From Candidatus Aenigmatarchaeota archaeon (GTDB lineage Archaea > Aenigmatarchaeota > Aenigmatarchaeia > GW2011-AR5), in contig JBAZQV010000001.1 of assembly GCA_041645025.1 (NCBI GenBank), positions 1,519 to 65,518 on the forward strand: 64,000 bases of DNA, given 5' to 3'. The translations under genes were made by a program, and so were the position numbers. Every line of letters begins with the position of its first letter. Position 1 is the stretch's first letter. Of the stretch, positions 6,616 to 59,377 are shown one piece after another. The notes below the pieces were generated by a model, which saw nothing but the letters and a program-made list of their open reading frames with translations, had not been told where the DNA came from and ran no database searches.

Positions 6616-7020
6616 CTAGGGCGCAAGTATTTGTGAAGGCGAATTCAGCGTCGTGAAGTTGTAGATTAAACCATCCTGCGAAGCAACAAGAAAATCAAGG
6701 CTAACGTTGTTTGTGACATCGCAATCATTTATGTTATATTTCATATAGAAAAAAATGCCCTTCGGAGCCAGTATATTCCATGCGGTTGCGTTCAGCTCCT
6801 TCAGATTTGTGCTGAGGTTCCTGCATGTTGGATTGTCATCGGTGACGGTATTCTTTATTATGTTATCCAGTTGTTTTGTGATGCTGTTAAAGTAAATATC
6901 ATTGCTTATTCTTGCCGGTGAAGAGGGGTCAACAACAAAGTAATCTTTTAGCAGAAGTGAGATGCCTAGAAATACGCTCGAAATTATTACAGCTGAAATG
7001 ATGAACCACTGGCCTTTCAT
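6616..7020 (-). CDS. Small secreted/membrane-anchored protein with a possible class III (type IV pilin-like) signal peptide
   Basis: N-terminus MKGQWFIISAVIISSVFLG: charged residue, Gly at -1, Gln at +1, hydrophobic stretch. Confidence 0.35.
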   Translation of the reverse strand: MKGQWFIISAVIISSVFLGISLLLKDYFVVDPSSPARISNDIYFNSITKQLDNIIKNTVTDDNPTCRNLSTNLKELNATAWNILAPKGIFFYMKYNINDCDVTNNVSLDFLVASQDGLIYNFTTLNSPSQILAP

Positions 7021-17908: not shown

Positions 17909-18376
17909 TTAGTATCGCTTTTTGACTATTGATTTTCTTTCAGCAGCGACTATTGGCTTGACTACCTCGACATTCTTCGGGAACTCCTTTCCGCGCAGAA
18001 GAAGGTTCTTTTCTGCTTTCTTGGCTGAAAAAGCCCTCATGAGATACTTTTCGGCCTTTTCTACATCAAATTCCTTGCAGGAAAATATGTCTATGGAAGC
18101 GAAGCGCTGGGCAGCAAATGTGTGAATAGTTATGTGGCTTTCTGCTATGAGCACAAAGGCTGATACGCCGCCTCGATCAAAGCTATCTTTTTTACCCAGC
18201 GGGTTTGATGTAAACTTATTGACGACGGGCTGGAAAATTTTGTGCATGCCTATTTTTTCAGGCAGTTTGTCCAATAAGTTGTATATAAATTTATCATCGA
18301 GAAGACGTTGTTTGTCACATCCGTACATGTCAAGTGTTAGATGTGGGCCAAAACCGACAGTTACTTTTTGTTCCAT
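17909..18376 (-). CDS. speH: S-adenosylmethionine decarboxylase proenzyme (archaeal SpeH type)
   Basis: FVLIAESHITIHTF and FASIDIFSC motifs. Confidence 0.7.
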   Translation of the reverse strand: MEQKVTVGFGPHLTLDMYGCDKQRLLDDKFIYNLLDKLPEKIGMHKIFQPVVNKFTSNPLGKKDSFDRGGVSAFVLIAESHITIHTFAAQRFASIDIFSCKEFDVEKAEKYLMRAFSAKKAEKNLLLRGKEFPKNVEVVKPIVAAERKSIVKKRY

Positions 18377-18479
18377 CTTATTATCTACATTTCCCCTTCT
18401 TTTTAGTAAGATTATTTTTTGTACGCGTCACATATTTAAAAATATAGCTTCTCTATCAAAGGGGTTTTTGAAGTTTGTT

Positions 18480-19424
18480 ATGCGCAAAAGTACTATGAAA
18501 ACCGATACCGCTGTAAAGGGCTACGATTTTTCCAAGGGCCTGGACCTGAAGAGTTTCCTTGAAGCCTATGCGACGACCGGGCTGCAGGCGTCCAACCTGA
18601 CAAAGGCTATAGAAATAGCCAAAAAGATGAGAAAGGAGAAGGTCACAGTATTTCTTGGCTACACCTCTAACATGATTTCCTCGGGCGTGCGTGAGTCCAT
18701 CCTATATCTTGTAAAAAACAAACTAGTGCATGCTATAGTAACCACGGCTGGCGGCGTAGAAGAGGATATAATAAAGTGCATCAAACCTTTCATATTGGGA
18801 GATTTTCGTCTTGACGGGGCAGCACTGCGCCGCCAGGGCATAAACAGGACAGGTAATATTCTGGTTCCCAATGACAGGTACATAGAATTTGAAAAGATAT
18901 TTACTCCATTTCTAAAGAAGCTTTTGGAAGAGCAGAAGCAAACAGGAAAGATAGCCACACCCACGGAGATTTGTAAGAGACTGGGAGAACTGGGTGATGA
19001 GACGTCTGTTCTTTACTGGGCACAGAAAAATAACATACCAGTTTTCTGCCCAGGCATAACCGATGGTTCCATGGGTGACATGATTTTCTTTTTCAAGAGC
19101 GAGAACCCGGAGTTCAAGGTTGATGTGTCTGATGATATCCACAATATAATAGACATGGTAATGGACTCAGGAAAGACGGGCGCGATAATCCTTGGCGGCT
19201 CCCTGCCAAAGCATCACATAATGAATGCTAACGGCGTTTTGGATGGTCTCAAGTATGCCATATACATAAACACTGCTACCGAAGGCGATGGATCGGACTC
19301 GGGTGCAATGCCTGAAGAAGCAAAGAGCTGGGGCAAGGCTGATTATGATGCTGATTGTGTAAAGGTTAGCATGGACGCTACGATAGCATTTCCGCTTCTT
19401 GTGGCGGGACTGGTGATTGAATGA
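18480..19424 (+). CDS. dys: Deoxyhypusine synthase, copy 1 (start trimmed to MRKSTMKT)
   Basis: 314 aa; GGSLPKHHIMNAN and NTATEGDGSDSGA motifs. Confidence 0.85.
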   Translation: MRKSTMKTDTAVKGYDFSKGLDLKSFLEAYATTGLQASNLTKAIEIAKKMRKEKVTVFLGYTSNMISSGVRESILYLVKNKLVHAIVTTAGGVEEDIIKCIKPFILGDFRLDGAALRRQGINRTGNILVPNDRYIEFEKIFTPFLKKLLEEQKQTGKIATPTEICKRLGELGDETSVLYWAQKNNIPVFCPGITDGSMGDMIFFFKSENPEFKVDVSDDIHNIIDMVMDSGKTGAIILGGSLPKHHIMNANGVLDGLKYAIYINTATEGDGSDSGAMPEEAKSWGKADYDADCVKVSMDATIAFPLLVAGLVIE

Positions 19425-20377
19425 GCAAGATGAATGAAGCTAAAGACAGCATATTCAAGGACTCCACAGAGCCGGAAGGCCTTGAAATAAAGGGCTACGA
19501 TTTTTCAAAACAACCAACCCTGAGTAAATTAATAGAAAGCTTTTACTCTACAGGATTCCAGGCTTCTCATCTGGGCAGGGCCATAGAAGTTGCAAAGAAG
19601 ATGAGAAAGGGGAATGTGACAATATTTCTTGGTTTTGGCGCAGATGCAGTTGCTTCCGGCGTCCGCGAGTCTATATCTTATCTTGTAAAAAATAAGATAG
19701 TTCATGCGCTAGTGACCACGGCCGATGGCATTGAAGCCGATGTCATAAGGACAAGGAAAGATTTTGTTCTGAATGGAAAGGGGAAACGCGGGGATAATTT
19801 TGTAGGAAATATTATGATTCCATGCGACGGGTATAAAATATTCACAGATATTCTAAACAAGACGCTTTCCGAGTTGTATGTGGAACAGAAAAAATCAGGA
19901 GAAATAGCTACACCGGGTAAAATTGCAAAAAGTCTGGGAAAGGTGTGCGATGAAACTTCTATACTGTATTGGGCACAGAAAAATAACATACCGGTTTTCT
20001 GTCCTGGCATAACTGACGGCGCCACGGGAAATATAATATCTTCATTCAAGTCAAAGAGCAGGGACTTCAAGCTGGACGTGAGTGATGATGTTGTTATTCT
20101 TGAGGACACGGTCCTGGACGCCAAAGAGACAGGCGCAATAATTCTCGGCGGTTCCCTGCCAAAGCACCATATAATGAATGCTAATATGATGCGCGAGGGC
20201 ACCAAGTACACGATTTACATTAACACAGCCATGGAAGGAGACGGCTCGGACAGTGGTGCGCTGCCAGAGGAAGCAAAGAGCTGGGGGAAAGCTGCCGCAG
20301 ATGTTGATTCGGTGAAGGTTCAGGCAGATGCCAGCATAGTTTTTCCTCTGCTGGTCGCTGGGGCTTTTGTTGACTAG
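19421..20377 (+). CDS. dys: Deoxyhypusine synthase, copy 2 (tandem paralog, overlapping stop/start)
   Basis: 318 aa; about 55-60% identical to copy 1 by eye; the same motifs are conserved. Confidence 0.85.
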   Translation: MSKMNEAKDSIFKDSTEPEGLEIKGYDFSKQPTLSKLIESFYSTGFQASHLGRAIEVAKKMRKGNVTIFLGFGADAVASGVRESISYLVKNKIVHALVTTADGIEADVIRTRKDFVLNGKGKRGDNFVGNIMIPCDGYKIFTDILNKTLSELYVEQKKSGEIATPGKIAKSLGKVCDETSILYWAQKNNIPVFCPGITDGATGNIISSFKSKSRDFKLDVSDDVVILEDTVLDAKETGAIILGGSLPKHHIMNANMMREGTKYTIYINTAMEGDGSDSGALPEEAKSWGKAAADVDSVKVQADASIVFPLLVAGAFVD

Positions 20378-41234: not shown

Positions 41235-42101
41235 GTGATTAACATGCAGATAGTAAACGAGGAAAAGGGCAAAATGCTCTCTATAGGCGCAAAGGAAAAA
41301 CAGTTATTTTCTGGAATAGCTTTGAAGATACTAAAGACTCTTGCTGATCATGAAAGCTATCCGAAGGAGATTGCTAACCAGCTTCGTTTGGACGAGCAGA
41401 AAATATATTATCATATCAGGCAACTGGAGAAAAAAGGATATATATCTCTCGTGAGGAAGGAGGAAAGAGGCGGGGCGCTGGCAAAGTTTTATGCCCTGAC
41501 AAGCCCGGCATTTTTTGTCCGCTTTGGCGAGTTTCAGGAAACAAAAAGATTTTCTGCTGCTACAAATTTCCTGCCTTTTATTTCAAATGGCAGGCTGGAA
41601 GCGAAGATAATAGTTGGCAGCCCTGACCCGCACGGGCCGGAAAAAGCGAGGAGCAGGGACGTGACATTTGCCGTGGATCTTGCTTTGTTCCTTGGGACAT
41701 TCCTGAATAAAGTTGAAGTCTTGTCTGTTTTAGAGGACAAAGACGTTCACAGCCATGACCTTAGCAGCAACCTGATAATAGTCGGCGGTCCTGTTACCAA
41801 TAAAGTTACTAAGATGGTCAATGATAAACTGCCTGTAAGGTTTGATGCAAAGAAAAATATAATGTCCAGAAAAAAGGTTTACAAGGAAGACGAGTGTGGG
41901 TTCATTGCCAAAACCGATAACCCATTCAGCAAAGGAAAGAAAATAATAGTCATAGCCGGCAAAAGATACAGCGGCACAAAGGCGGCTGTTATAGCTTTCA
42001 TAAATAATTTTGATTTGATTGAAAAGAAAAATTACCTTATCGTCGAGGGACTTGATAATGATGGCGATGGGGAAATAGACGACGCAAGAGTACTGGAATA
42101 A
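41235..42101 (+). CDS. Winged-helix (ArsR/MarR-like) domain protein with a C-terminal domain of unknown function
   Basis: ILKTLADHESYPKEIANQLRLDEQKIYYHIRQLEKKGYI is a wHTH. Confidence 0.45.
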   Translation: MINMQIVNEEKGKMLSIGAKEKQLFSGIALKILKTLADHESYPKEIANQLRLDEQKIYYHIRQLEKKGYISLVRKEERGGALAKFYALTSPAFFVRFGEFQETKRFSAATNFLPFISNGRLEAKIIVGSPDPHGPEKARSRDVTFAVDLALFLGTFLNKVEVLSVLEDKDVHSHDLSSNLIIVGGPVTNKVTKMVNDKLPVRFDAKKNIMSRKKVYKEDECGFIAKTDNPFSKGKKIIVIAGKRYSGTKAAVIAFINNFDLIEKKNYLIVEGLDNDGDGEIDDARVLE

Positions 42102-49389: not shown

Positions 49390-50229
49390 CTACTGTGTTC
49401 TTGTATGAAGAAATTGCCATGCTTGGCTGTTTCCCATGTTTCTTATGTACTCGTTTCTTATTCGATTTATGTTTTCCAGGTATTCAGTACCGTCCCCATC
49501 TCTTGCGCGCCTAATACCTTTGTAGTATGCGCGCACGGCTAGGTTTCTGTCACATCTTGCTTCCTGTAACATTCTCCCAAACCACAGCGCGGCGGCTTCT
49601 GTAGCGATGTAGGGGTTAAAGTAATCCTCGTCTCTTATATCCCTTTTGTATATTCTGTTTATCGCTTTTCTGGCGTAGTTTGACGCTCCCGGAAGCCCTA
49701 TATCAATGTTACCTTTTTGCTGGTTGATTGCGCGATGCTCGAACCACGATTCACCCATTACTATTGCTTTCAGCGTATCAGAACCATCCTCTGTTCTGCA
49801 CGATTCATGAATGCCTGACCAATAGTCCAGCATTTTCATGAAAGCCATGGACCTTACAGGTTGCGGCACTATGTCCCATTCATTATACGACATCTTTTCC
49901 CAGATATCTTTATTCTGTATGAAATTACCATACTTTTCAAGCATCTTCTGCAAGCCTTTTTCACTTAAACCGTTTGGAACAACATCCCAGTCATCAAAAT
50001 GCGCGTTTCTCCAGAATATACCATCATGCTTGATGCCTCTTTGTGTGGTGGAAAAAGAGACTTTCACCCAGTTAACGGTCAGCGTAACGCCCAGCGGTTT
50101 ATCCGCATCTCCTACAATTGTCTGGTATGCGGTAGGCGGGTACGAATTGGGTACAATTTCCAGCGGGTCTATCTCTGTTGGCATAGCGAGCATTGCGACA
50201 GAAGCAGCGGCTGCAAGGAGTTTTTTCAT
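49390..50229 (-). CDS. Secreted protein with a possible lytic-transglycosylase (SLT/lysozyme-like) domain
   Basis: Signal peptide MKKLLAAAASVAMLA; IVMGESWFEH is a glutamate-serine motif reminiscent of SLT. Confidence 0.3.
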   Translation of the reverse strand: MKKLLAAAASVAMLAMPTEIDPLEIVPNSYPPTAYQTIVGDADKPLGVTLTVNWVKVSFSTTQRGIKHDGIFWRNAHFDDWDVVPNGLSEKGLQKMLEKYGNFIQNKDIWEKMSYNEWDIVPQPVRSMAFMKMLDYWSGIHESCRTEDGSDTLKAIVMGESWFEHRAINQQKGNIDIGLPGASNYARKAINRIYKRDIRDEDYFNPYIATEAAALWFGRMLQEARCDRNLAVRAYYKGIRRARDGDGTEYLENINRIRNEYIRNMGNSQAWQFLHTRTQ

Positions 50230-50761: not shown

Positions 50762-51166
50762 TTATTTCACCATTATAACATTTTTCAAATCTCTAAAGTG
50801 CTCATCGCCACTTACAATCTTAAGGTTTCTGATTTTTGCAACCGCCATTATTATCGCATCGGCCATACTAATTTTATTTTTGCTGAATCGCGTTCTTAGA
50901 TTACCAGCTTCCTCTGCTACCTCTGAGTCCACCGAAACTATTTCGCTTCTCAATTTTAGGAATTGAACAAATTCTGCATAGGGCTTCCCTTCACGGGTGA
51001 ATTTATTGACAATCTCGGCAACTACTATTGAAGGCGTTATAAGATCGCCTTTTTCTATAAAGTCTTTTATCCTGATACCTATATCAGAGCCTGTGAAATA
51101 CTCGTACCACGCGTATGTGTCGATGACATAAGTTTTGGACGGATCTATGTCAATCTCTGTTGTCAT
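50762..51166 (-). CDS. vapC: PIN-domain toxin VapC
   Basis: VIDTYAWYEYFTGSD... PIN. Confidence 0.65.
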   Translation of the reverse strand: MTTEIDIDPSKTYVIDTYAWYEYFTGSDIGIRIKDFIEKGDLITPSIVVAEIVNKFTREGKPYAEFVQFLKLRSEIVSVDSEVAEEAGNLRTRFSKNKISMADAIIMAVAKIRNLKIVSGDEHFRDLKNVIMVK

Positions 51167-51356
51167 CTTGCCACATCTCTTTGCGTTCCTTTTGTGTAAG
51201 AGGCTTTAGACCCTTGGCAGCACCAAACATCGATCTTGGAATTTTTTCTGCCTTGAAAAGCGCGTCCTCTATGATATCCTCAAATGTGACGCCCCTCTCA
51301 TCCTTGAGTTGCTTCAGCTTCTTCCACATTGCGTCGTCTACTGCTATTGTTTTCAT
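51150..51356 (-). CDS. vapB: VapB-family antitoxin
   Basis: MKTIAVDDAMWKKLKQLKDERGVTFEDII is similar to the other antitoxins; overlaps the PIN gene. Confidence 0.5.
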   Translation of the reverse strand: MKTIAVDDAMWKKLKQLKDERGVTFEDIIEDALFKAEKIPRSMFGAAKGLKPLTQKERKEMWQDDNRD

Positions 51357-51725
51357 AATATCACCATTATATTTTATAAATTATAATCTATAACTTATAA
51401 AGGTTTCGGTCCTTGATGATAAAGGGAAAGAAAGTGGCTGAGCTATCCCAGTTGATTGGAGTCATTTTTGCTAAGCTTTTATATCAGGTAGATTATCATA
51501 AAGATGAAGATAAAGAGCGAAACTGGGGCGTGCCTTTGGATACAGCTAAAGCTTGGTTCACAGACCCAAGATTTGATGTGGAGTTCTCCTATGGCGTGCA
51601 CGGACACGAAGATAAAGACATGCCTCATGACACAAAATATTTCATAACTAAGATGAGAAAACTGTGATTTAAAGAAAACTTTTTAAAACGAATTTATATT
51701 ATATCATGAACCTAATTCTACTCTA

Positions 51726-52340
51726 ATGAGAAGAAAAAAACATAAAATCAGGATCTCCCGGAGAAACGAAAAGTTGCTGCATTTGCTCAAGTTCTTCGTA
51801 AAGTTCAATCTGTTTGCCATACCGCTTTACATTATCTTATTGGCGGGGTTTGAATGGACCTGGCTGGAGCAGTTTGTTGCGAACGTCGTGACTGTGATGC
51901 TTCAATCCCTTGGTTTCAGCCCTACTATGAACGGAATGCTTATTTCCATACCCATAAGGGACGGCAACTGGGCTGCTGTAATTAACTGGGATTGCACTGG
52001 CTGGAAAAGCATGCTCGCTTTCTTTGCACTGGTAATGGCAACTGAGTTTCCACTAAAACGGAAGCTAGCTGGCTTAGTGCTGATACCTGTGATATTTGTT
52101 ATTAACCTACTTAGGATAGTTTTCATGTTCTTCTATGTCAAGACCTTTGACCTGGCATACTACCAGACTGTTCATGCAGTGGTGTGGAGCTGGGGGCTAA
52201 TAGCAGCAATAATCGTTTTATGGCTCCTGTGGCTTAGGTTTGACTTTACAATGATACTCAAGAAGAAACGAAAAAGACGCAAGAGAAGCAGAAAGCGAAA
52301 AAGTATGAAAAGGACTAAGGTGAAAACGAAAAAAGTATGA
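51726..52340 (+). CDS. Exosortase/archaeosortase-family-like small membrane protein
   Basis: INWDCTGWKS resembles the C(S/T)Gxx S active-site motif; conserved Arg in NLLRIV; multi-TM; basic C-terminal tail. Confidence 0.35.
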   Translation: MRRKKHKIRISRRNEKLLHLLKFFVKFNLFAIPLYIILLAGFEWTWLEQFVANVVTVMLQSLGFSPTMNGMLISIPIRDGNWAAVINWDCTGWKSMLAFFALVMATEFPLKRKLAGLVLIPVIFVINLLRIVFMFFYVKTFDLAYYQTVHAVVWSWGLIAAIIVLWLLWLRFDFTMILKKKRKRRKRSRKRKSMKRTKVKTKKV

Positions 52341-52504
52341 AAGCGATGAGGCAAAAGCAAACCCATACCTCTGCCTTTAGTTCTTCTCAGTACTCAGTAG
52401 AAAAAACAATACAGTGAAATCAGGATTAATTTATGTGATTTCACGTATAGTTGCCAATTTATATTGGACAACTATATATACCATCCGCAGCAAAGTAAAT
52501 AATC

Positions 52505-53032
52505 ATGGTAGACAAGCTTACGGAGCTGGAAGAGCGTTTCAACAAGCTGGAAGAGAAGCTGAAGATTACTTTTATTGAACTGGAAAGACGCCTTGACCAA
52601 CAACAACCACAATCACAATCATCTTCGGAGGATCGTATACAGGAGCTCGAGGACCTTCTTTTGTTGCTACAACTGGAGAATACAAAACTCAAGGAAAAGG
52701 TTGGAGACGGACTTGACTTTGGAATAATTCCTAATGTTCCTGGCGTTTCAGAACGCCTGACCCGCGTTGAAAGCGAGCTCGCTGCACAGACAAGCGCCAC
52801 GCCGATACAGAGCGAGATTGAGACGAAAATAGCAACACTCGAGGAGAGAATAAATTCACTTCAGACAACGAACTATGTGGAAACGCGGCCTGTTGATGAG
52901 CCTGTTGATGAACCAGTTGAGGAGCATGTTGCTCTGCAACATAATAAGAAGAAAGTAAAGACAGTCAAGGAAGTGTTAGAGGAGGATTCGGATTTGCTCT
53001 CCAGCGTACAAAGAATACTGGGGCGCGCCTAA
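52505..53032 (+). CDS. Coiled-coil protein (175 aa)
   Basis: Heptad-rich LTELEERFNKLEEKLKITFIELERRLD; immediately upstream of the 783-aa coiled-coil gene. Confidence 0.4.
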   Translation: MVDKLTELEERFNKLEEKLKITFIELERRLDQQQPQSQSSSEDRIQELEDLLLLLQLENTKLKEKVGDGLDFGIIPNVPGVSERLTRVESELAAQTSATPIQSEIETKIATLEERINSLQTTNYVETRPVDEPVDEPVEEHVALQHNKKKVKTVKEVLEEDSDLLSSVQRILGRA

Positions 53033-53041
53033 GGTGTTACT

Positions 53042-55393
53042 ATGGATATAGAGAAAAAATTAAAGGAAATGGAAGAGTCCATAAAGACCATAGCAGAGTT
53101 CGTGAGGGACCAGACGGAAAAGATAGAGGCAGAGCTTTCCATGCCTGATTATTCGGACGAGATGGAGAAGATAAAGGAAACTTTTTCTGACGAAAAGGAA
53201 TACGCGCGTCTTCAGGCGAAAAAAATCGACAAGCTTGAGGGGCATGTGGAGGTGCTTCTCAAGTCGCCCAAGGACAAGTCAATGGAGGAGAAATTCAAGA
53301 AATCCATGCAGTCCACCCGTGCTGAACTTGACAAGCTTAAGCATGAGCTGATGCCAAAGGTAAAATTCATCGAGGGAAAGATGGACAAGATCAAGGAAGC
53401 AGTGGAAGAGGTTGGTGAGCTACACGAGCTAAAGGGTCACATGAAGGAACTGGAAACGAAAATGCAGGCCAGTGTTGAAGGTGTTGAAAAACAACTCAAA
53501 GAAGTCACAAACACCAACTTCGGTGATAATTACAAAAAGGAACTGGAGAGATTGAATGAGGGAATGCTGGCGCGGTTCAAGGACAATAACGTGGAATACT
53601 TTGAGAAGCTGGGTTATATTGAACAACGCGTCAACTCGCTAACTGGAAAGGTCGACAAAACCTCCAATGATGATATCCTGCAGAAAGTCAAAAGCCTGGA
53701 CGAAAAGCTTGGCAACCTGAAGGAGTCGCTAGACGGTATTGCTGCCCTGAATCCAGAGGAGATGAAAGACCGCGTTGATTTCATAGACAACAAGCTCAAT
53801 GAGACACTTGTCAATAAGAACCAGCTGGATGACATGGAAAAAACCTTAAGGGAAACCAGGGCTGTTGCGAACAGGTTCAAGGATTTCAATGCCGAGGAAT
53901 ACAGGGAGGAACTGGTCAAGGAAATAAACGGTGCTATTGAAAATTTCAAACGCAGGGAATTCGGCAACATAAAAGACATCGGCGAGTCGCTTTCAAGGTT
54001 CAAGAACCTGGAATTAAGCGACGTAAGAAAGATAAACTCACTTGTCGAGGAGCTGAAGGGACTTGAGATAGATGATGTCAAAGCCATGAAAAACATCGAG
54101 ACACGCGACATAAGACGGCTGAGCACGGCGCTCGACGAAATGAAGGGCGTCGAGCTGGAGGACATCGGAAGGCTCTCACGGCAGCTCAAGGATGCGCGGG
54201 AGTCCATTCGCGCGGAAATTGGCAACAAGCAGGCAACAGAGGAGAGACTTGCTTCAATTGAATCAAAGATGGAGGAGCTAAAGCGGGCTGAGAAAAAATT
54301 CGACAAGCATATAGGCGACATACTTGACCAGTTCAAGGATATGGAGGCGCACAACGTAAAGGACATGGCAAAACAGCTCAAGGAAGCGAAGGAGCTGCTG
54401 GAAGACGAATCAGTGAGCAGGCAGTCGTTTGAAAAACGCGTATTTGATATTGAAAACAAGGTACAAAACTTTGAAAAGAGCACTGCAAAAACCCTCGAAC
54501 AGTTCAAGCACTTCGAAGGCGAGGAAGTGAAAAAACTCAAGCAGCTGGCTGAACATTTCGAGCACCTTGAGTCAGATGACATAAAGAAGCTCAAAGAAAA
54601 CATGGAACACTTCAGCGAGCTGGAATCAGATGACATAAAGAAGCTCAAGGAAATGGTAGCGAACTTCGAGCACCTGAAGACTGAGGACATAGGCAAGCTG
54701 AAGCAGATGGTGGAACACTTCGGCAGTCTCGAATCCGATGACATAAAGAAATTGAGGGGAGCTATGGAGCAGCTCAAGGGTCTTGAGGCGCATGATATCA
54801 GCAGCCTTACGGAGAAAATGAAAAATGCGACAGAAGCGCTGGAAGATGAATCTGTAAACAGACAATCGATGGAAAAACGCATCATGGACTTGGAATCAAA
54901 GACCGAGAAAATCGACAGCATGGAGATTCATGATATTGAAAATCTCGCCAATGAGATGAAATACGCCAAGGAAACTCTGGAAGAGGAGTCGGTGACACGG
55001 CAATCACTTGAAAAACGGCTTCATGCTATTGAAACAGACATGAGCCAGGTGCGCGGTGTAGAGGCCGGACAGGAGAACGCCGAAAAAGTTGACGTTACAA
55101 AGCTCAGCAACCGGATCCAGGATATGGAAAGCAACATGAAACTTATGACCGTCAGACTGCTTACACAGCAGCTGAACGAGTTCGCAAAGTCAATTGACAG
55201 AAGGCTGCCAAACATTGTCAGCCGCGAGGAGTACCTAAGGCAGATAGCTGACTTGAACCAGCGCATACGCACCGTGGAAGCACCGGACCTCGCACCACTG
55301 GGCGCACGCGTCGGAAGGCTGGAGAAGAAGCTGGAAGAAATAGCTGGAATGATGCGCGGTATGTACAACCGGATTCCTATTGTTGTCGAATAA
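53042..55393 (+). CDS. Large coiled-coil protein (783 aa) with tandem 18-aa repeats
   Basis: Repeats HFEHLESDDIKKLKENME / HFSELESDDIKKLKEMVA / NFEHLKTEDIGKLKQMVE ...; no TM segment or signal peptide. Confidence 0.55.
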   Translation: MDIEKKLKEMEESIKTIAEFVRDQTEKIEAELSMPDYSDEMEKIKETFSDEKEYARLQAKKIDKLEGHVEVLLKSPKDKSMEEKFKKSMQSTRAELDKLKHELMPKVKFIEGKMDKIKEAVEEVGELHELKGHMKELETKMQASVEGVEKQLKEVTNTNFGDNYKKELERLNEGMLARFKDNNVEYFEKLGYIEQRVNSLTGKVDKTSNDDILQKVKSLDEKLGNLKESLDGIAALNPEEMKDRVDFIDNKLNETLVNKNQLDDMEKTLRETRAVANRFKDFNAEEYREELVKEINGAIENFKRREFGNIKDIGESLSRFKNLELSDVRKINSLVEELKGLEIDDVKAMKNIETRDIRRLSTALDEMKGVELEDIGRLSRQLKDARESIRAEIGNKQATEERLASIESKMEELKRAEKKFDKHIGDILDQFKDMEAHNVKDMAKQLKEAKELLEDESVSRQSFEKRVFDIENKVQNFEKSTAKTLEQFKHFEGEEVKKLKQLAEHFEHLESDDIKKLKENMEHFSELESDDIKKLKEMVANFEHLKTEDIGKLKQMVEHFGSLESDDIKKLRGAMEQLKGLEAHDISSLTEKMKNATEALEDESVNRQSMEKRIMDLESKTEKIDSMEIHDIENLANEMKYAKETLEEESVTRQSLEKRLHAIETDMSQVRGVEAGQENAEKVDVTKLSNRIQDMESNMKLMTVRLLTQQLNEFAKSIDRRLPNIVSREEYLRQIADLNQRIRTVEAPDLAPLGARVGRLEKKLEEIAGMMRGMYNRIPIVVE

Positions 55394-55508: not shown

Positions 55509-56435
55509 ATGAAGATACTTGTTACCGGCGGGACAGGGTTTCTTGGTCAGCGGGTAGTGGAAAAACTTGGAAAACACAAAGTTATTGTTTTTTCGAGAAG
55601 CCTGAAAAAAAGCAAAAAAGCTGCACAGGTTCTTGGAGACATAACAAATTCGGATGAACTGGAAAAGGCATTTCCTGTTGACGTGGTTATTCATCTTGCT
55701 GCAGTTCTTGACGAGCACAGCAGTGATTTGTTCAAGATAAATGTTGAAGGAACGAGGAACGTCATAGATCTATGCAAAAAATACAAAGTCAAACAACTCA
55801 TACATATGAGTTCCACAGCTGCTCTTGGCGAGACAAAATTTGCCAAGGAAGACTCACCAAGAAATCCAAAGACAAACTACGAAAAGTCGAAGCGCGACGC
55901 AGAGGACATTGTAATAAATTCCGGTCTTAACTACACGATAATAAGGGCCCCTGTTATTTTTGGCCCAAGCAAAATATGGCTTGATGTAATAAAAGCCGCA
56001 GAAAGAGGATTTCCGATTATTGGCAACGGCTCAAACCATTTTCATGTGGCCTATGTGGATGATGTTGCCTCGTTGATTGTCAAAGCTATAGGAAACAAAA
56101 AAACCTATAAACAGATTTTTCACATTGCCGCTAGCGATACGCCTACTTACAGGGAATTCTACTCGATGCTTTGCAGGGCACTGGGCATAGAGATGACAAA
56201 GAAGAGTGTGGCCGTGACTACAGTAAGAATAATTTCTGCTATTCATAGAGTTTCATCTAAACTGAGAGGCAAAAAACCAAAGGCAATAATTGAAAAATCA
56301 AATATTGACAGAATAATACGGGACAGGATTGTTTCGACAAAGAAGATACAGACAATTCTACGCTTTAAACCGACAACAACAAAAAGAGCAATAGGTGAAA
56401 CTGTGAATTACTTTAAAAAGTCTGGTTTGATTTGA
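55509..56435 (+). CDS. NAD-dependent epimerase/dehydratase family protein
   Basis: VTGGTGFLGQRVV Rossmann motif; 308 aa. Confidence 0.75.
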   Translation: MKILVTGGTGFLGQRVVEKLGKHKVIVFSRSLKKSKKAAQVLGDITNSDELEKAFPVDVVIHLAAVLDEHSSDLFKINVEGTRNVIDLCKKYKVKQLIHMSSTAALGETKFAKEDSPRNPKTNYEKSKRDAEDIVINSGLNYTIIRAPVIFGPSKIWLDVIKAAERGFPIIGNGSNHFHVAYVDDVASLIVKAIGNKKTYKQIFHIAASDTPTYREFYSMLCRALGIEMTKKSVAVTTVRIISAIHRVSSKLRGKKPKAIIEKSNIDRIIRDRIVSTKKIQTILRFKPTTTKRAIGETVNYFKKSGLI

Positions 56436-57214
56436 TAATTATGATAATAGGCAAGACAGAAAAATACATACTGAAGAGGATAGAGGAAACCGGTGGCATA
56501 CTTTCTGTAATAATCGATCCGGTCGATTATCCAACAAGAGAGAAGGCAATTGCTACGGGCGTTGCTGCGTACAAAGCAGACGCGGATATCATAGCTGTTG
56601 GCGGCTCCATAAACGCGCAGGGCGAACTGCTTGACACTGTAACAAAGGGCATAAAGGAAAAGGTGGATGTGCCGGTTGTGCTGTTTCCTGGAAACATAGC
56701 TACAATCACATCCCACGCGGATGCAATCTATTTCATGTCGCTGCTGAACTCGAGAAACCCTTATTATATTTCTCAAGCACAAATGCTGGCGGCGCCGCTT
56801 ATCAAAGAACTTAAGATAGAGCCATTGCCCATAGGATACATTGTTGTTGAACCGGGCGGTACTGTGGGCTGGGTCGGCGATGCAAATGCGGTGCCAAGAA
56901 TAAAACCGAAAATTGCTGCAGCCCTTGCGATGGCAGGACAGTTCTCCGGACACAGGATAATATTCACAGACGCCGGTTCTGCTGCCTATGCGCCGGTTCC
57001 GGTGGAAATGGTTGCAGCAGTCAAGAAGTCGATAGACGTGCCTTATCTTGTTGCAGGCGGAATACGAACAGCTAAGCAGGCAGGCGAGATAATTGCTGCT
57101 GGCGCTGACTGGGTTCAGATAGGCACAGCCGCGGAAAACAGCAAAAACCCTGAAGAGCTAATCAGGAAATTTGTAATAGAAATCAAGAAAGCAGGCAAGA
57201 AGAAAATTAACTGA
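56432..57214 (+). CDS. Geranylgeranylglyceryl phosphate synthase family (PcrB/GGGPS TIM barrel)
   Basis: IIAVGGS and LVAGGIRTAKQAGEIIAAGADWVQIGTA motifs. Confidence 0.7.
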   Translation: MIIMIIGKTEKYILKRIEETGGILSVIIDPVDYPTREKAIATGVAAYKADADIIAVGGSINAQGELLDTVTKGIKEKVDVPVVLFPGNIATITSHADAIYFMSLLNSRNPYYISQAQMLAAPLIKELKIEPLPIGYIVVEPGGTVGWVGDANAVPRIKPKIAAALAMAGQFSGHRIIFTDAGSAAYAPVPVEMVAAVKKSIDVPYLVAGGIRTAKQAGEIIAAGADWVQIGTAAENSKNPEELIRKFVIEIKKAGKKKIN

Positions 57215-57331
57215 CTAAGACAAAACATCTTGGCGAGCACTAATCTATGTTGCAAATATTGGATGAATTCCAATAATAACATTTCTCATTTTTGTGTGCA
57301 GTAGTCTAGATTAAAATCGCCCTAATTTCTT

Positions 57332-58120
57332 CTACAGTAGCGAAAAGAACAAGTTTCCAAACAGCAGCGTCAGGACAAGGGCTATGGCGAAAACAGGCAC
57401 AAAGCGCATGCCGTCTTTTATCACTACGAAACGTTTCTGGCTACGCAGCTTTTTTATCTGCCGGTCCGTGAGGCCAACCCAGTTGCCTTTCTCCAGAACG
57501 TCGCCTTTTCTCAACTTGCTTGTTGGCACTTTTTTGCGGAAAACTTTTCTTTCAATGACAAAGGCATAGCGCCAGAAAAGCAACAGCAAGATTATGAGCG
57601 GAACCAGTTTTGGGATTAAGATAATAATTCTGGGCACTGCTGCAGAGGCCACGAGTATCGCTATAATCACGGCAGCAGGCACGCCAAGTATAAATTTCAA
57701 ATTTTCACGGAAATCTTTGACAACATATTTGAACACATGCCTGTTCAGGATGCCTATTGTAACAGAATAAATAACAGTATAGAATATGCTGACAAGCATG
57801 AAGTTCATTAGATATGGCACTATGAATATTTCGCCTCCATAGACAGGTACCATATAGCCGATGGCTGCAAGAATCCATGCATCAGCTCCGCCCCACTGGC
57901 CTTTTTTGTACATGATTAAGCCGATAGCGAGGAGAGCCGTGCCTACTATGATGGAAACGGTGAACGGATACCAGTCTCCTAGCATGCCTTGCAGAATCCA
58001 GTAGGCTATGCCAACAATTACCATGCCCACAGGCAATTTGTCAGGAACTTCTGTAGTCTTTAGATCCCATAAACCAGCGAGAATAGAGCCTGCGACAGCA
58101 ATTAACAATATTTCCAGCAT
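57332..58120 (-). CDS. A24-family prepilin/preflagellin peptidase-like membrane protein
   Basis: WDLKTTEVPD (first catalytic Asp context) and GQWGGADAW (GGAD motif); polytopic. Confidence 0.45.
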   Translation of the reverse strand: MLEILLIAVAGSILAGLWDLKTTEVPDKLPVGMVIVGIAYWILQGMLGDWYPFTVSIIVGTALLAIGLIMYKKGQWGGADAWILAAIGYMVPVYGGEIFIVPYLMNFMLVSIFYTVIYSVTIGILNRHVFKYVVKDFRENLKFILGVPAAVIIAILVASAAVPRIIILIPKLVPLIILLLLFWRYAFVIERKVFRKKVPTSKLRKGDVLEKGNWVGLTDRQIKKLRSQKRFVVIKDGMRFVPVFAIALVLTLLFGNLFFSLL

Positions 58121-58254
58121 TTAATACCCACCTAAATGGCACGTTTGTAATGCACCAAAACTTTTATAACCTAGAGTTTAAATTAATTACTAGTTAGTAT
58201 TTATTAATAAGATTTTTCAGCCTTAATTAGGCATTGGATTGAGAGGTAGGGGAA

Positions 58255-58962
58255 ATGCTTCCACAACACGTAGGTATCATACTTGACGGCAACAGGCGCT
58301 TCGCGCGCGAGCTCATGAAGAGGCCCTGGCTGGGCCACAAGGCAGGCCTGTATAAGGCAAGACAGGTTCTTGGCTGGGCCTGCGAACGGGGCATAAAATA
58401 CGTCACAGCTTACGTTTTGTCTTTGGAAAACTTACAGACAAGGCCAAAGAAAGAACTGCAGCTTATACTGAAATATTTCGGTGGTGAGATGGATGACATC
58501 CTGGCAACAGCTGATCATGTTGTCCACCGATTTGCCGTGCAGGTAAGGTTCATAGGGCGGACACATATACTTCCGGACGCACTGCAGGAAAAGATGCGCC
58601 TTGTTTCTAACAGAACAAAGAATTACAAGAAGCACACGCTTAACATCGCGATAGCTTACGGCGGCCAGCAGGAGCTTGTCGACGCGATGAAGAAAATCCT
58701 TGAAGAGGGACTTGCCGGGACTATAAGGCCGTGCGACCTCAATGAAACCATACTGAAGGAACACCTCTACACAAACGGTCAGCCGTATCCAGACATGATA
58801 TTCAGGACGGGCGGAGAAAAACGATTGAGCAACTTTTTGCCGTTCCAGTCAGCGTACAGCGAGCTTATCTTTACAGATAAGAAATGGCCTGCCATACAAG
58901 AGAAGGACTTTGACACGGCGCTGAAGGAATTCTCGGACAGGAAGAGACGATTTGGAAGGTAG
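58255..58962 (+). CDS. uppS: Undecaprenyl/di-trans,poly-cis-prenyl diphosphate synthase (cis-prenyltransferase)
   Basis: HVGIILDGNRRFA motif. Confidence 0.9.
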   Translation: MLPQHVGIILDGNRRFARELMKRPWLGHKAGLYKARQVLGWACERGIKYVTAYVLSLENLQTRPKKELQLILKYFGGEMDDILATADHVVHRFAVQVRFIGRTHILPDALQEKMRLVSNRTKNYKKHTLNIAIAYGGQQELVDAMKKILEEGLAGTIRPCDLNETILKEHLYTNGQPYPDMIFRTGGEKRLSNFLPFQSAYSELIFTDKKWPAIQEKDFDTALKEFSDRKRRFGR

Positions 58963-59377
58963 GTTTTTAATTGTTATGTCTATAGGAAGAAGAGAAATAT
59001 TCGCTTTGCATATTTTGATTTTGCTTTTCATTTTCACATTCAGGAACCAGTTTCTAGCTGACGCATGGCTTTCGATTGCATCGTCACTAATAACGATACC
59101 TGGATTGCTAATAGTCATTACAGGTGCAATAACACTGGATAAAGCAAAGAATTTGGCAACGAACGGAATATATTCGAGAATCAGACATCCGATTTATTAC
59201 GGCAGAATTTTATTCTTCATTGGTATAGCTTTATTCCTTAAGTCAATTTACGGACTAGTCCTAACACTTCTGGTAATTTTGCCGCTTCACATCCATATAA
59301 TCAGGGAAGAGGAAAAACTCTTGGCTGGGAAATACGGCAAAAAATACAACCGATATAAAAAACAGACGCTATTCTAG
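58952..59377 (+). CDS. Isoprenylcysteine carboxyl methyltransferase / phospholipid methyltransferase family membrane protein
   Basis: NGIYSRIRHPIYYG (RHPxY) motif. Confidence 0.55.
   Translation: MEGRFLIVMSIGRREIFALHILILLFIFTFRNQFLADAWLSIASSLITIPGLLIVITGAITLDKAKNLATNGIYSRIRHPIYYGRILFFIGIALFLKSIYGLVLTLLVILPLHIHIIREEEKLLAGKYGKKYNRYKKQTLF

Follow-up and report, generated by a model that had tools for sequence, protein, structure and literature searches.

A 64,000-nucleotide stretch of DNA from a Candidatus Aenigmatarchaeota archaeon (hereafter the window), part of an 89.5-kb metagenomic contig (ENA ERZ27249422, k141_1024324), carries three consecutive plus-strand genes: one for a membrane protein of the exosortase/archaeosortase family (51726-52340, 204 residues; the sortase) and two for acidic, helical proteins (52505-53032, 175 residues, and 53042-55393, 783 residues; the fibre proteins). 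All three open reading frames (ORFs) were read at the positions given in a preliminary description of the DNA, which had been made from the letters alone. Aenigmatarchaeota are members of the DPANN group, and the genes around the locus are of archaeal type (histone, aIF5A, GGGP synthase, A24 prepilin-type peptidase and cis-prenyltransferase). We describe here the clade to which the sortase belongs, the protein family represented by the two downstream genes, and the pairing of the two across related genomes. The features of the locus, in window coordinates, are as follows.

51693..51704, plus strand: TATA-box-like element TTTATATTATAT, about 22-33 nt 5' of the sortase start codon, read by eye from the sequence; a possible archaeal promoter.
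51726..52340, plus strand: exosortase/archaeosortase-family membrane protein, 204 residues, isoelectric point (pI) 11.4, both termini very basic; from hidden Markov models (HMMs), homologues and an AlphaFold2 model.
51990..52010, plus strand: motif D89-C90-T91-G92-W93-K94-S95 with the presumed catalytic cysteine; from an alignment of 19 homologues.
52104..52115, plus strand: N127...R130 (NLLR) in the fourth predicted membrane helix; both residues invariant in the alignment.
52254..52337, plus strand: basic C-terminal tail of the sortase, 19 Lys/Arg in 28 residues, predicted cytoplasmic; lineage-specific and missing in many homologues.
52458..52482, plus strand: two TATA-like elements, TTTATAT and ACTATATATACC, 5' of the gene for the 175-residue protein; read from the sequence.
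52505..53032, plus strand: 175-residue acidic helical protein, the N-module of the fibre family as a separate gene; homologues lie downstream of the sortase in related loci.
52631..52699, plus strand: leucine patch in a charged helix, DRIQELEDLLLLLQLENTKLKEK, the best-conserved N-module motif in an alignment of 21 homologues; it recurs in fused members.
53042..55393, plus strand: 783-residue acidic, nearly all-helical protein, body and C-module; from homologues in related loci and C-domain clusters.
54431..54871, plus strand: block of 147 residues (441 bp; residues 464-610), missing from three compared relatives (85%, 85% and 63% identical).
54551..54820, plus strand: five in-register tandem 54-bp (18-residue) repeats of the type HFEHLESDDIKKLKENME; from an ungapped repeat finder, 61-76% identity to the reference copy.
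55091..55390, plus strand: conserved C-terminal domain (C-domain) of about 100 residues, the only part alignable across the whole fibre family.
55214..55234, plus strand: IVSREEY, similar to the beta-layer motif published for trimeric coiled coils.
55376..55390, plus strand: C-terminal pentapeptide P-I-V-V-E, followed by the stop codon; the family signature.

On the evidence of profile matches and conserved residues, the 204-residue protein is a genuine member of the exosortase/archaeosortase family of membrane cysteine transpeptidases with its active-site-type residues intact, as the preliminary description had proposed from a CTGWKS segment and a conserved arginine. The HMM search suggested there as a check placed it above the cut-offs of both TIGR04178 (52.1 bits; cut-off 23) and PF09721 (38.3 bits; cut-off 25.7), the TIGR04178 match spanning residues 86-170 and enclosing the C90 motif. 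Among the 19 aligned homologues, D89, W93, K94, S95, N127, R130 and H150 are invariant and C90, the sole cysteine of the protein, is present in 18, so the Cys/Arg/Asn triad on which the earlier assignment had been staked is conserved. C90 and R130 are 40 residues apart; in ArtA, in which Cys173, Arg214 and Arg253 are critical for activity (PMC9263693), Cys173 and Arg214 are separated by 41. By this spacing and by their position within the signature match, C90 and R130 probably correspond to ArtA Cys173 and Arg214. About 39 residues past R130, at the spacing of ArtA Arg253, the 19 homologues share no invariant arginine; the invariant residues of this region are H150, W154, W166 and W169, and position 171 is mostly Arg or Lys.

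The protein scores below the curated cut-off of every named subfamily, including ArtA (TIGR04125; 47 bits, cut-off 75), XrtH (42.9, cut-off 86), ArtE (40.4, cut-off 95), ArtB (33.4, cut-off 150), heimdallarchaeosortase (33.2, cut-off 130) and pacearchaeosortase (16.7, cut-off 80), and five more homologues spanning the three clades described below behave likewise, with 50-66 bits against TIGR04178 and scores under all subfamily cut-offs. We collected 160 homologues, almost all from Aenigmatarchaeota, and NCBI labels the identical sequence 'exosortase/archaeosortase family protein'. These sequences define an unnamed clade, almost confined to Aenigmatarchaeota, for which a generic family annotation already exists. 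The remark that the protein is shorter than typical ArtA is correct with respect to the 271-position ArtA model, but its length is not unusual, since the models for ArtB, ArtD, ArtE, ArtF and XrtH have 150-166 positions.

The AlphaFold2 model of the sortase (mean predicted local distance difference test score, pLDDT, 90.4) has long hydrophobic helices at residues 12-40, 93-105, 120-141 and 146-171, with which a hydropathy scan concurs, and four or five membrane helices are predicted. Nine of the first 16 residues are Lys or Arg, and the loop at residues 106-119 carries KRK. Cytoplasmic placement of both termini would entail four spanning helices (approximately 22-42, 89-105, 120-141 and 146-171), in which case C90 and H150, along with the helix at 45-61 and the small beta-sheet at 67-85, would lie on the outer face of the membrane. 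On the basis of the basic termini and the AlphaFold2 model, then, the active site would face outward, in agreement with ArtA, whose active site is listed as extracellular (PMC9263693). Sequence and fold searches of the PDB with the sortase returned nothing meaningful (the best match was bacteriorhodopsin, with a TM-score of about 0.2), and the PDB copy searched apparently contains no exosortase structure.

The fibre proteins proved to belong to a family defined by its C-terminus. A word-indexed homologue search with the 783-residue protein found at least seven close relatives, a profile of 26 C-domains gave 3 matches, and BLAST similarity narrows with distance to the final ~90 residues. When the last 104 residues of the 783-residue protein were run exhaustively with HMMER against 1.84 billion representative proteins, 111 clusters matched the C-domain, nearly all of them through to the final residue. 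Most of the 110 matches examined (101) end in P-x-[ILVM]-[ILVM]-[ED], three end in near variants (PKFVE, PKIVE and TYVVE), and the six without the motif look like coiled-coil noise. Aligned C-termini end in Pro, three hydrophobic residues and Glu (PIVVE, PVVVE, PLIIE, PFVIE; once PVIVD), a defining feature which the preliminary description, in calling the proteins coiled coils, had not mentioned and which is added here.

The 175- and 783-residue proteins, whose genes are separated by 9 bp, appear from their relatives to be the split version of one protein family in the lineage of the window. At the same position in three related loci (L015, L019 and L021; L numbers denote loci) lies one fused protein with the N-module first and the same pentapeptide last, and of the 104 family clusters that bear the C-domain of the 783-residue protein, 34 have an N-terminus recognised by an N-module HMM. 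The N-module consensus is ELEERxNRLEEKLKxTFxEIEKR ... RIQELEDLLLLLQLE. This gene-fusion evidence ties the two proteins functionally. Beyond coiled-coil noise, neither matched any Pfam, NCBIfam or PDB family. Judged from sequence, the two genes together are one member of an apparently undescribed family with an N-module, a helical body of variable length (from ~200 to more than 1000 residues across the family), a C-domain of ~100 residues and a fixed C-terminal pentapeptide. Among full-text papers on archaeosortases of Aenigmarchaeota or DPANN, a cell-surface review mentions neither this sortase clade nor a fibre partner; the family, its C-terminal tag and its coupling to an archaeosortase appear to be undescribed so far.

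Alignments indicate that the body of the fibre changes fast through repeat gain and loss. At least five tandem 18-residue repeats with a 54-bp period had been noted in the 783-residue protein, and five in-register copies were found at 54551-54820, with the motif [LM]-E-x-x-D-[IV]-x-x-[LM] at residues 509, 527, 545, 563 and 581; Tandem Repeats Finder reported 54551-54750 with a period of 54, 3.7 copies and a score of 175. Older, degenerate copies start at residues 341, 352, 370, 434 and 627. The 147-residue block is flanked by ESVxRQSxEKR direct repeats, for which the DNA copies lie at 54386, 54827 and 54965, the first two exactly 441 nt apart. Since the block holds all five repeats and occurs only in the window protein, the repeats belong to a lineage-specific expansion, and the variation in repeats among strains for which the preliminary description had suggested looking takes the form of a block with no counterpart in the three relatives. 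NCBI names the 783-residue protein after DUF3106 (PF11304), which it does match (27.8 bits; cut-off 24.3); the match is confined to residues 483-571 within the repeat block, relatives without the block have no DUF3106 match, and we reject the identity as a repeat artefact. An antisense ORF of 435 residues, rich in Ser and Phe, overlaps the gene for the 783-residue protein (53614-54921, minus strand); it is almost certainly spurious, a by-product of the repeats and purine richness of the sense strand.

Both fibre proteins are rich in charged residues (pI 4.7 and 5.2), and AlphaFold2 models the 783-residue protein as helix almost throughout, with low confidence (mean pLDDT 46). The hydrophobic periodicity of that protein is 3.75 in residues 1-310, 3.6 in residues 310-610 and 3.5-3.6 in the last 170 residues, compared with the heptad value of 3.5, and the 3.6 (18/5) of the repeat zone implies a hydrophobic stripe that is straight rather than supercoiled. 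The coiled-coil label is borne out only in part, by the acidic, charged sequence and the predicted helix, and fits less well with the pLDDT of the model and the repeat-zone period. The best-conserved motif of the C-domain, h-V-[TS]-[KR]-x-[DE]-[FY], resembles the beta-layer consensus of trimeric coiled coils, [aliphatic]-A-T-K-[polar]-[D/E], and the FVTKTEF of MPN010 (PMC4786415), and a relaxed pattern, h-[AVSTM]-[TS]-[KRQH]-x-[DEQ]-h, is present at this place in 65 of the 104 family members. When a profile of 34 C-domains was compared with the PDB, only weak matches were obtained (E-values from 0.008 to 2; best 0.0085), rich in parallel trimeric beta-layer coiled coils: 7o92, CCDC90B (6h9m), Tcar0761 (5apz), OMP100 (5app), MPN010 (2ba2) and SadA constructs. 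From these likenesses the fibre is probably a parallel, possibly trimeric, helical bundle.

The preliminary description had left open whether the sortase and the helical proteins are linked. We fetched 80 loci with relatives of the sortase, nearly all from metagenome-assembled genomes of Aenigmatarchaeota, and counted ORFs over 82 loci. Where the sortase is at least 42% identical, the gene order is histone, aIF5A, sortase, 175-residue protein, 783-residue protein, SDR, GGGP synthase, A24 peptidase and prenyltransferase. The 82 loci contain 1209 non-overlapping ORFs. Exactly 30 of these have the pentapeptide at their end, and every one of the 30 is a charged helical protein encoded on the same strand as the sortase and 87-3020 bp downstream of it. 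A distant sortase clade has entirely other flanks, namely a Hef-type helicase, an XPF nuclease and DUF460 upstream and topoisomerase I downstream, and a fibre ending in PLIIE, PLVVE or PIVIE still directly follows the sortase. A neighbour-joining tree of the sortase domains has three deep clades, and the fibre gene is the conserved same-strand downstream neighbour of the sortase in two of them; the third is unpaired except at L041, and its sortase genes are followed instead by genes for DUF7287 pilin-like proteins or by sugar-nucleotide and flippase genes. Starting from the fibre instead, a sortase was found just upstream of the family members P0206 and P0195, and a metagenome scan with a narrower alignment gave nine close loci, in eight of which the DNA extends far enough upstream; all eight have the sortase there. 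At L097 a local rearrangement has inverted the downstream lipid genes and left the sortase-fibre pair intact. The association is strong and old and is not obligatory: the link left open earlier gains from a pairing kept beyond BLAST-detectable similarity in at least two gene neighbourhoods, but it is not universal.

Such a pair could also be no more than stable gene order in compact DPANN genomes, with the adjacency meaning nothing for the sortase and the fibre acting as an independent cytoskeletal or division protein, an FtsZ-associated filament with a role like that of the coiled-coil division proteins of bacteria. Two fibre members in separate 50%-identity clusters, and less than 50% identical to each other, P0238 (L095:542-3122) and P0232 (L100:2798-5548), are divergently transcribed beside ftsZ, followed by a TrmB/DUF7343 regulator, with no sortase in the DNA seen; P0224 has no sortase within 5 kb, the third sortase clade has no fibre nearby, and the TATA-like elements at 52458..52482 suggest a promoter of their own for the two fibre genes. 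Genes without evident relation to the sortase are stably syntenic as well, including those for histone, aIF5A and DUF460 (33 loci). This explanation does not readily account for a pair that persists while both flanks change completely, that outlasts the rearrangement at L097, and that leaves each motif-bearing ORF of the 82 loci as the downstream neighbour of a sortase, and we consider it unlikely, if with an appreciable chance of being right. General adjacency of the fibre family to ftsZ was considered as well and dropped; among the loci first compared the tubulin signature occurs in L049 and L095 only, and ftsZ is present in L100 too.

Several further observations concern the genes on either side of the sortase. 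DUF460 (PF04312) lies directly upstream of it in 33 loci from all three clades (e.g. L097:1264-2292, L018:1017-2069, L033:9530-9970 and L058:9438-9860) and is its most widely kept neighbour. The window's own clade has no DUF460 at that place and carries aIF5A, a PIN toxin-antitoxin pair and an 84-residue ORF instead. That ORF (51413-51667) has no similarity to DUF460 or to the Pup-ligase gene described next, and the idea of a remnant of either was dropped. The PIN-domain toxin and its small antitoxin-like ORF (50762-51356, minus strand, between aIF5A and the sortase) are kept in the closest relatives (L003, L083 and L084) and mostly absent from remoter syntenic loci, and several more toxin-antitoxin pairs lie just past the window end (L101). 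In one Aenigmatarchaeota genome, a Pup-ligase family gene (L016:8980-9996; PF03136, 252.6 bits) stands between DUF460 and the sortase; we know of no description of this family in archaea. A route by which the fibre would be ligated through its C-terminal Glu was dropped, as L016 alone has the PF03136 gene. In the third clade the gene after the sortase encodes a protein of ~220-240 residues with a DUF7287 match (L044, L047, L056, L058, L061, L063, L070 and L071, and the same gene in L073, L074, L077, L081 and L082), a pilin-like N-terminus (MRIDWIVA..FLVF), many N-x-S/T sequons and the end ..LVW; it may be another class of partner or substrate.

Downstream of the fibre genes in the window are the following neighbours.

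55509-56435, plus strand: SDR epimerase; Pfam match.
56432-57214, plus strand: GGGP synthase; Pfam match.
57332-58120, minus strand: A24 prepilin-type peptidase; PF01478, 42.8 bits.
58255-58962, plus strand: undecaprenyl/dolichyl-diphosphate synthase; Pfam match.

The SDR, GGGP synthase, A24 peptidase and prenyl-diphosphate synthase genes also follow the fibre gene in L003-L032, and their order is rearranged in L097. As judged from gene order, the neighbours at 55509..58962 are conserved context of the window's clade and are treated here as context rather than as established members of the system. PF01478 supports the A24-family peptidase named in the preliminary description, and the ORF called pilin-like there (6616-7020) matches nothing in Pfam, although its N-terminus does contain a hydrophobic stretch. 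Isoprenoid and lipid genes cluster at 55509-59377 and L101:1-191 (GGGP synthase, cis-prenyltransferase, a PEMT/ICMT-type methyltransferase and a polyprenyl synthase); the cluster of the relatives also holds a glycerol-1-phosphate dehydrogenase-type Fe-ADH and UbiA, and it keeps company with the fibre gene even after the rearrangement in L097.

These genes bear on a reading in which the fibre would be no coiled coil but an amphipathic-helix protein comparable to apolipoproteins, perilipins or phasins, which would coat or organise membrane lipid and be tied to the adjacent lipid genes. GGGP synthase, the Fe-ADH, UbiA, polyprenyl synthases and PEMT recur downstream, the straight stripe of the repeat zone would suit such a protein, and apolipophorin III (E 0.12) and phasin are among its weak matches. 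The matches are at noise level, however, the fibre proteins are very acidic with few large hydrophobic residues, and the pair of the distant clade has DNA-repair and topoisomerase genes, not lipid genes, on its flanks. We regard a lipid-coating fibre as highly doubtful.

What the sortase acts on is addressed by the signals that substrates of this superfamily carry. Neither the 175- nor the 783-residue protein has a hydrophobic segment at either end or a C-terminal membrane helix with a basic tail; the earlier remark that no C-terminal sorting signal was obvious in them agrees with the absence of any found here. The N-termini of the 104 fibre clusters, when read, contained no signal peptide, save two with a hydrophobic stretch, which are probably miscalled starts. 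The pentapeptide is a free C-terminus, with no membrane helix or basic cluster after the motif. From the sequences read, which have no signal peptide or membrane segment, the fibre would be cytoplasmic. The preliminary description had allowed for surface or cytoskeletal filaments, and of these the evidence leans to the cytoplasmic side, given the N-termini read and the members beside ftsZ.

Tails of the conventional tripartite type were found elsewhere. Less than 8 kb upstream of the sortase, L062 and L063 encode three large proteins whose C-termini consist of [S/D]-F-P-G-[L/I]-x-x-W followed by a membrane helix and then basic residues (hereafter FPG-type).

L062:8607-9599, minus strand: FPG-type candidate, tripartite tail near the sortase.
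L063:7872-9959, minus strand: FPG-type candidate, tripartite tail near the sortase.
L063:2449-4554, minus strand: FPG-type candidate, tripartite tail near the sortase.

Two of the three have a signal-peptide-like N-terminus, and a scan of 4550 ORFs gave no other credible tripartite tails that share a motif. They matched no NCBIfam model, the C-terminal sorting-domain models in the library included. We put the FPG tail forward as a candidate PGF-like sorting signal of the clade.

If the fibre were itself the dedicated substrate of the sortase, its Pro, three hydrophobic residues and Glu would be a new recognition signal, through which it would be cleaved or transferred onto lipid or envelope to give an M-protein-like surface fibre. 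The known exosortase and archaeosortase signals (PEP, PGF, PEF, VPXXXP and IPTL) all contain a conserved proline, as does the fibre tail, which opens with an invariant one, and a known arrangement in dedicated exosortase systems is a sortase-family gene placed tightly next to the gene for its one target. The fibre body also varies in length and repeat number like surface fibres, and stalks of surface adhesins are among its weak PDB matches. Such a substrate would nevertheless have to reach an active site that probably faces outward, with no signal peptide at the N-termini of the 104 clusters (the two probable miscalls aside) and no helix or basic cluster after its free C-terminal motif; conventional FPG-type candidates lie beside the sortase in related genomes, and some fibre members stand beside ftsZ with no sortase nearby. 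We therefore think it improbable that the fibre is the substrate.

A fibre without known substrate traits, the FPG-type candidates and the outward active site together favour a conventional sorting enzyme with the fibre as its cytoplasmic partner or scaffold and not its substrate, conventional substrates being encoded elsewhere in the genome; we hold this reading with moderate confidence. More speculatively, the C-terminal pentapeptide would attach the fibre to the sortase at its cytoplasmic face, or to another component of the envelope or division apparatus, and the fibre could thereby position or organise the anchoring of surface proteins by the sortase. As true substrates we would expect secreted proteins whose C-termini carry a PGF-like signal made up of the FPG motif, a membrane helix and a tail of basic residues. 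In Haloferax, ArtA, PssA and PssD localise to midcell together with FtsZ (PMC7157517). By analogy, and as the ftsZ-adjacent members hint, a speculative positioning of the sortase by the fibre might resemble this midcell confinement.

Weighing against a cytoplasmic partner are several points. Of the 56 sortase loci in which 3 kb or more of downstream DNA is available, 30 lack a nearby fibre gene with the strict motif. A fibre-like gene ending in a variant tail is present in three of these 30, and the others come mostly from the third clade. P0224, and P0232 and P0238 beside ftsZ, occur without a nearby sortase, as set out above. The loci share ancestry, so that the pairing counts overstate the number of independent events. 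The sortase and fibre genes may have separate promoters, and the basic C-terminal tail of the sortase, which would be the obvious dock for an acidic fibre, is not conserved among the aligned homologues. The preliminary description had set a genome without sortase substrates as its refutation; in the window and the next 10 kb, with 72 kb of the 89-kb contig read, no tripartite C-terminal signal was found. On the structural side, the orientation of the sortase is drawn from its termini and model, the fibre model is of low confidence, and the trimeric coiled coil, drawn from weak PDB matches and motif likeness, is best treated as a lead.

A bolder proposal is that the free C-terminal Pro, three hydrophobic residues and Glu form a new recognition tag read by this archaeosortase clade, either for covalent processing of a substrate without a membrane helix or as a cytoplasmic plug that couples a trimeric fibre, surface anchoring and the FtsZ division machinery. 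This we consider a long shot. If true, it would be a first direct molecular link of an archaeosortase to a cytoskeletal element, and it would bear on the midcell localisation of ArtA in Haloferax, for which no recruiting factor is known to us. Archaeosortases anchor S-layer and other surface proteins, and a physical coupling would offer a handle on the spatial organisation of envelope growth in archaea. If there is only synteny, the annotation of a DPANN envelope locus is still made cleaner. The annotation gaps filled are those of an unnamed archaeosortase clade, of a fibre family with a diagnostic motif (entered at NCBI as 'DUF3106' or 'hypothetical') and of a candidate FPG-type sorting signal.

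Three observations concern genes elsewhere in the window. An SLT lytic-transglycosylase domain (31.3 bits; cut-off 21.3) and a signal peptide mark the protein encoded at 49390-50229 (minus strand); an archaeon is not expected to make murein, and among the fetched loci the protein was detected only on this contig and on an identical short contig of a second sample, not in relatives of the locus. A DPANN cell could have acquired it as a murein hydrolase of bacterial type. At 41235-42101 (plus strand), the 'S-layer like family' outer domain (PF05124, 51.5 bits) is oddly paired with an N-terminal winged-helix DNA-binding domain (HTH_5, 29 bits). The overlapping adjacent genes at 18132-19424 and 19421-20377 (plus strand) have closely similar C-terminal sequences (...SWGKA...VKV..DA.I.FPLLVAG...) and look like a tandem deoxyhypusine-synthase-like pair.

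We compared the system with the known ones closest to its parts. The beta-layer proteins (Tcar0761/DUF3782, MPN010/DUF16, CCDC90B/DUF1640 and the stalks of trimeric autotransporter adhesins) resemble the fibre in the C-domain motif, which recalls their consensus, and in the long helical rod of non-heptad periodicity, which for the fibre is predicted. They differ from it in that no homology to the fibre is significant (best E-value 0.0085), in that IVSREE of the window departs from the consensus at three positions, and in having neither the tail of Pro, three hydrophobic residues and Glu nor a link to a sortase. Streptococcal M protein is likewise a long helical fibre with strain-variable tandem repeats, a sorting transpeptidase in the genome and a Pro-containing C-terminal motif; M proteins, however, have a signal peptide, LPXTG, a membrane helix and a basic tail, all of which the fibre family lacks, and Sortase A is unrelated in sequence to archaeosortases (PMC6098224).

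For the sortase, the short subfamilies (XrtH, ArtB, ArtD, ArtE, ArtF, pacearchaeosortase and heimdallarchaeosortase) share its size class (150-200 residues) and core signature, and several are lineage-restricted, as is the window's clade. All their models score far below cut-off for the window protein and the five further homologues, which places the window sortase in a separate, unnamed clade. ArtA of Haloferax volcanii, which acts on PGF-CTERM substrates, is a polytopic membrane protein of the same superfamily, the best-scoring of the named subfamilies, with nearly the same Cys/Arg spacing (41 versus 40), and the candidate substrates of related genomes carry a PGF-like FPG motif followed by a membrane helix and basic residues. 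The window sortase differs from ArtA in scoring under the 75-bit cut-off and in having 204 residues compared with a 271-position model. The genetic partners of ArtA are PssA and PssD (PMC7157517), whereas the window sortase is paired with a cytoplasmic-looking fibre of a kind not reported for ArtA.

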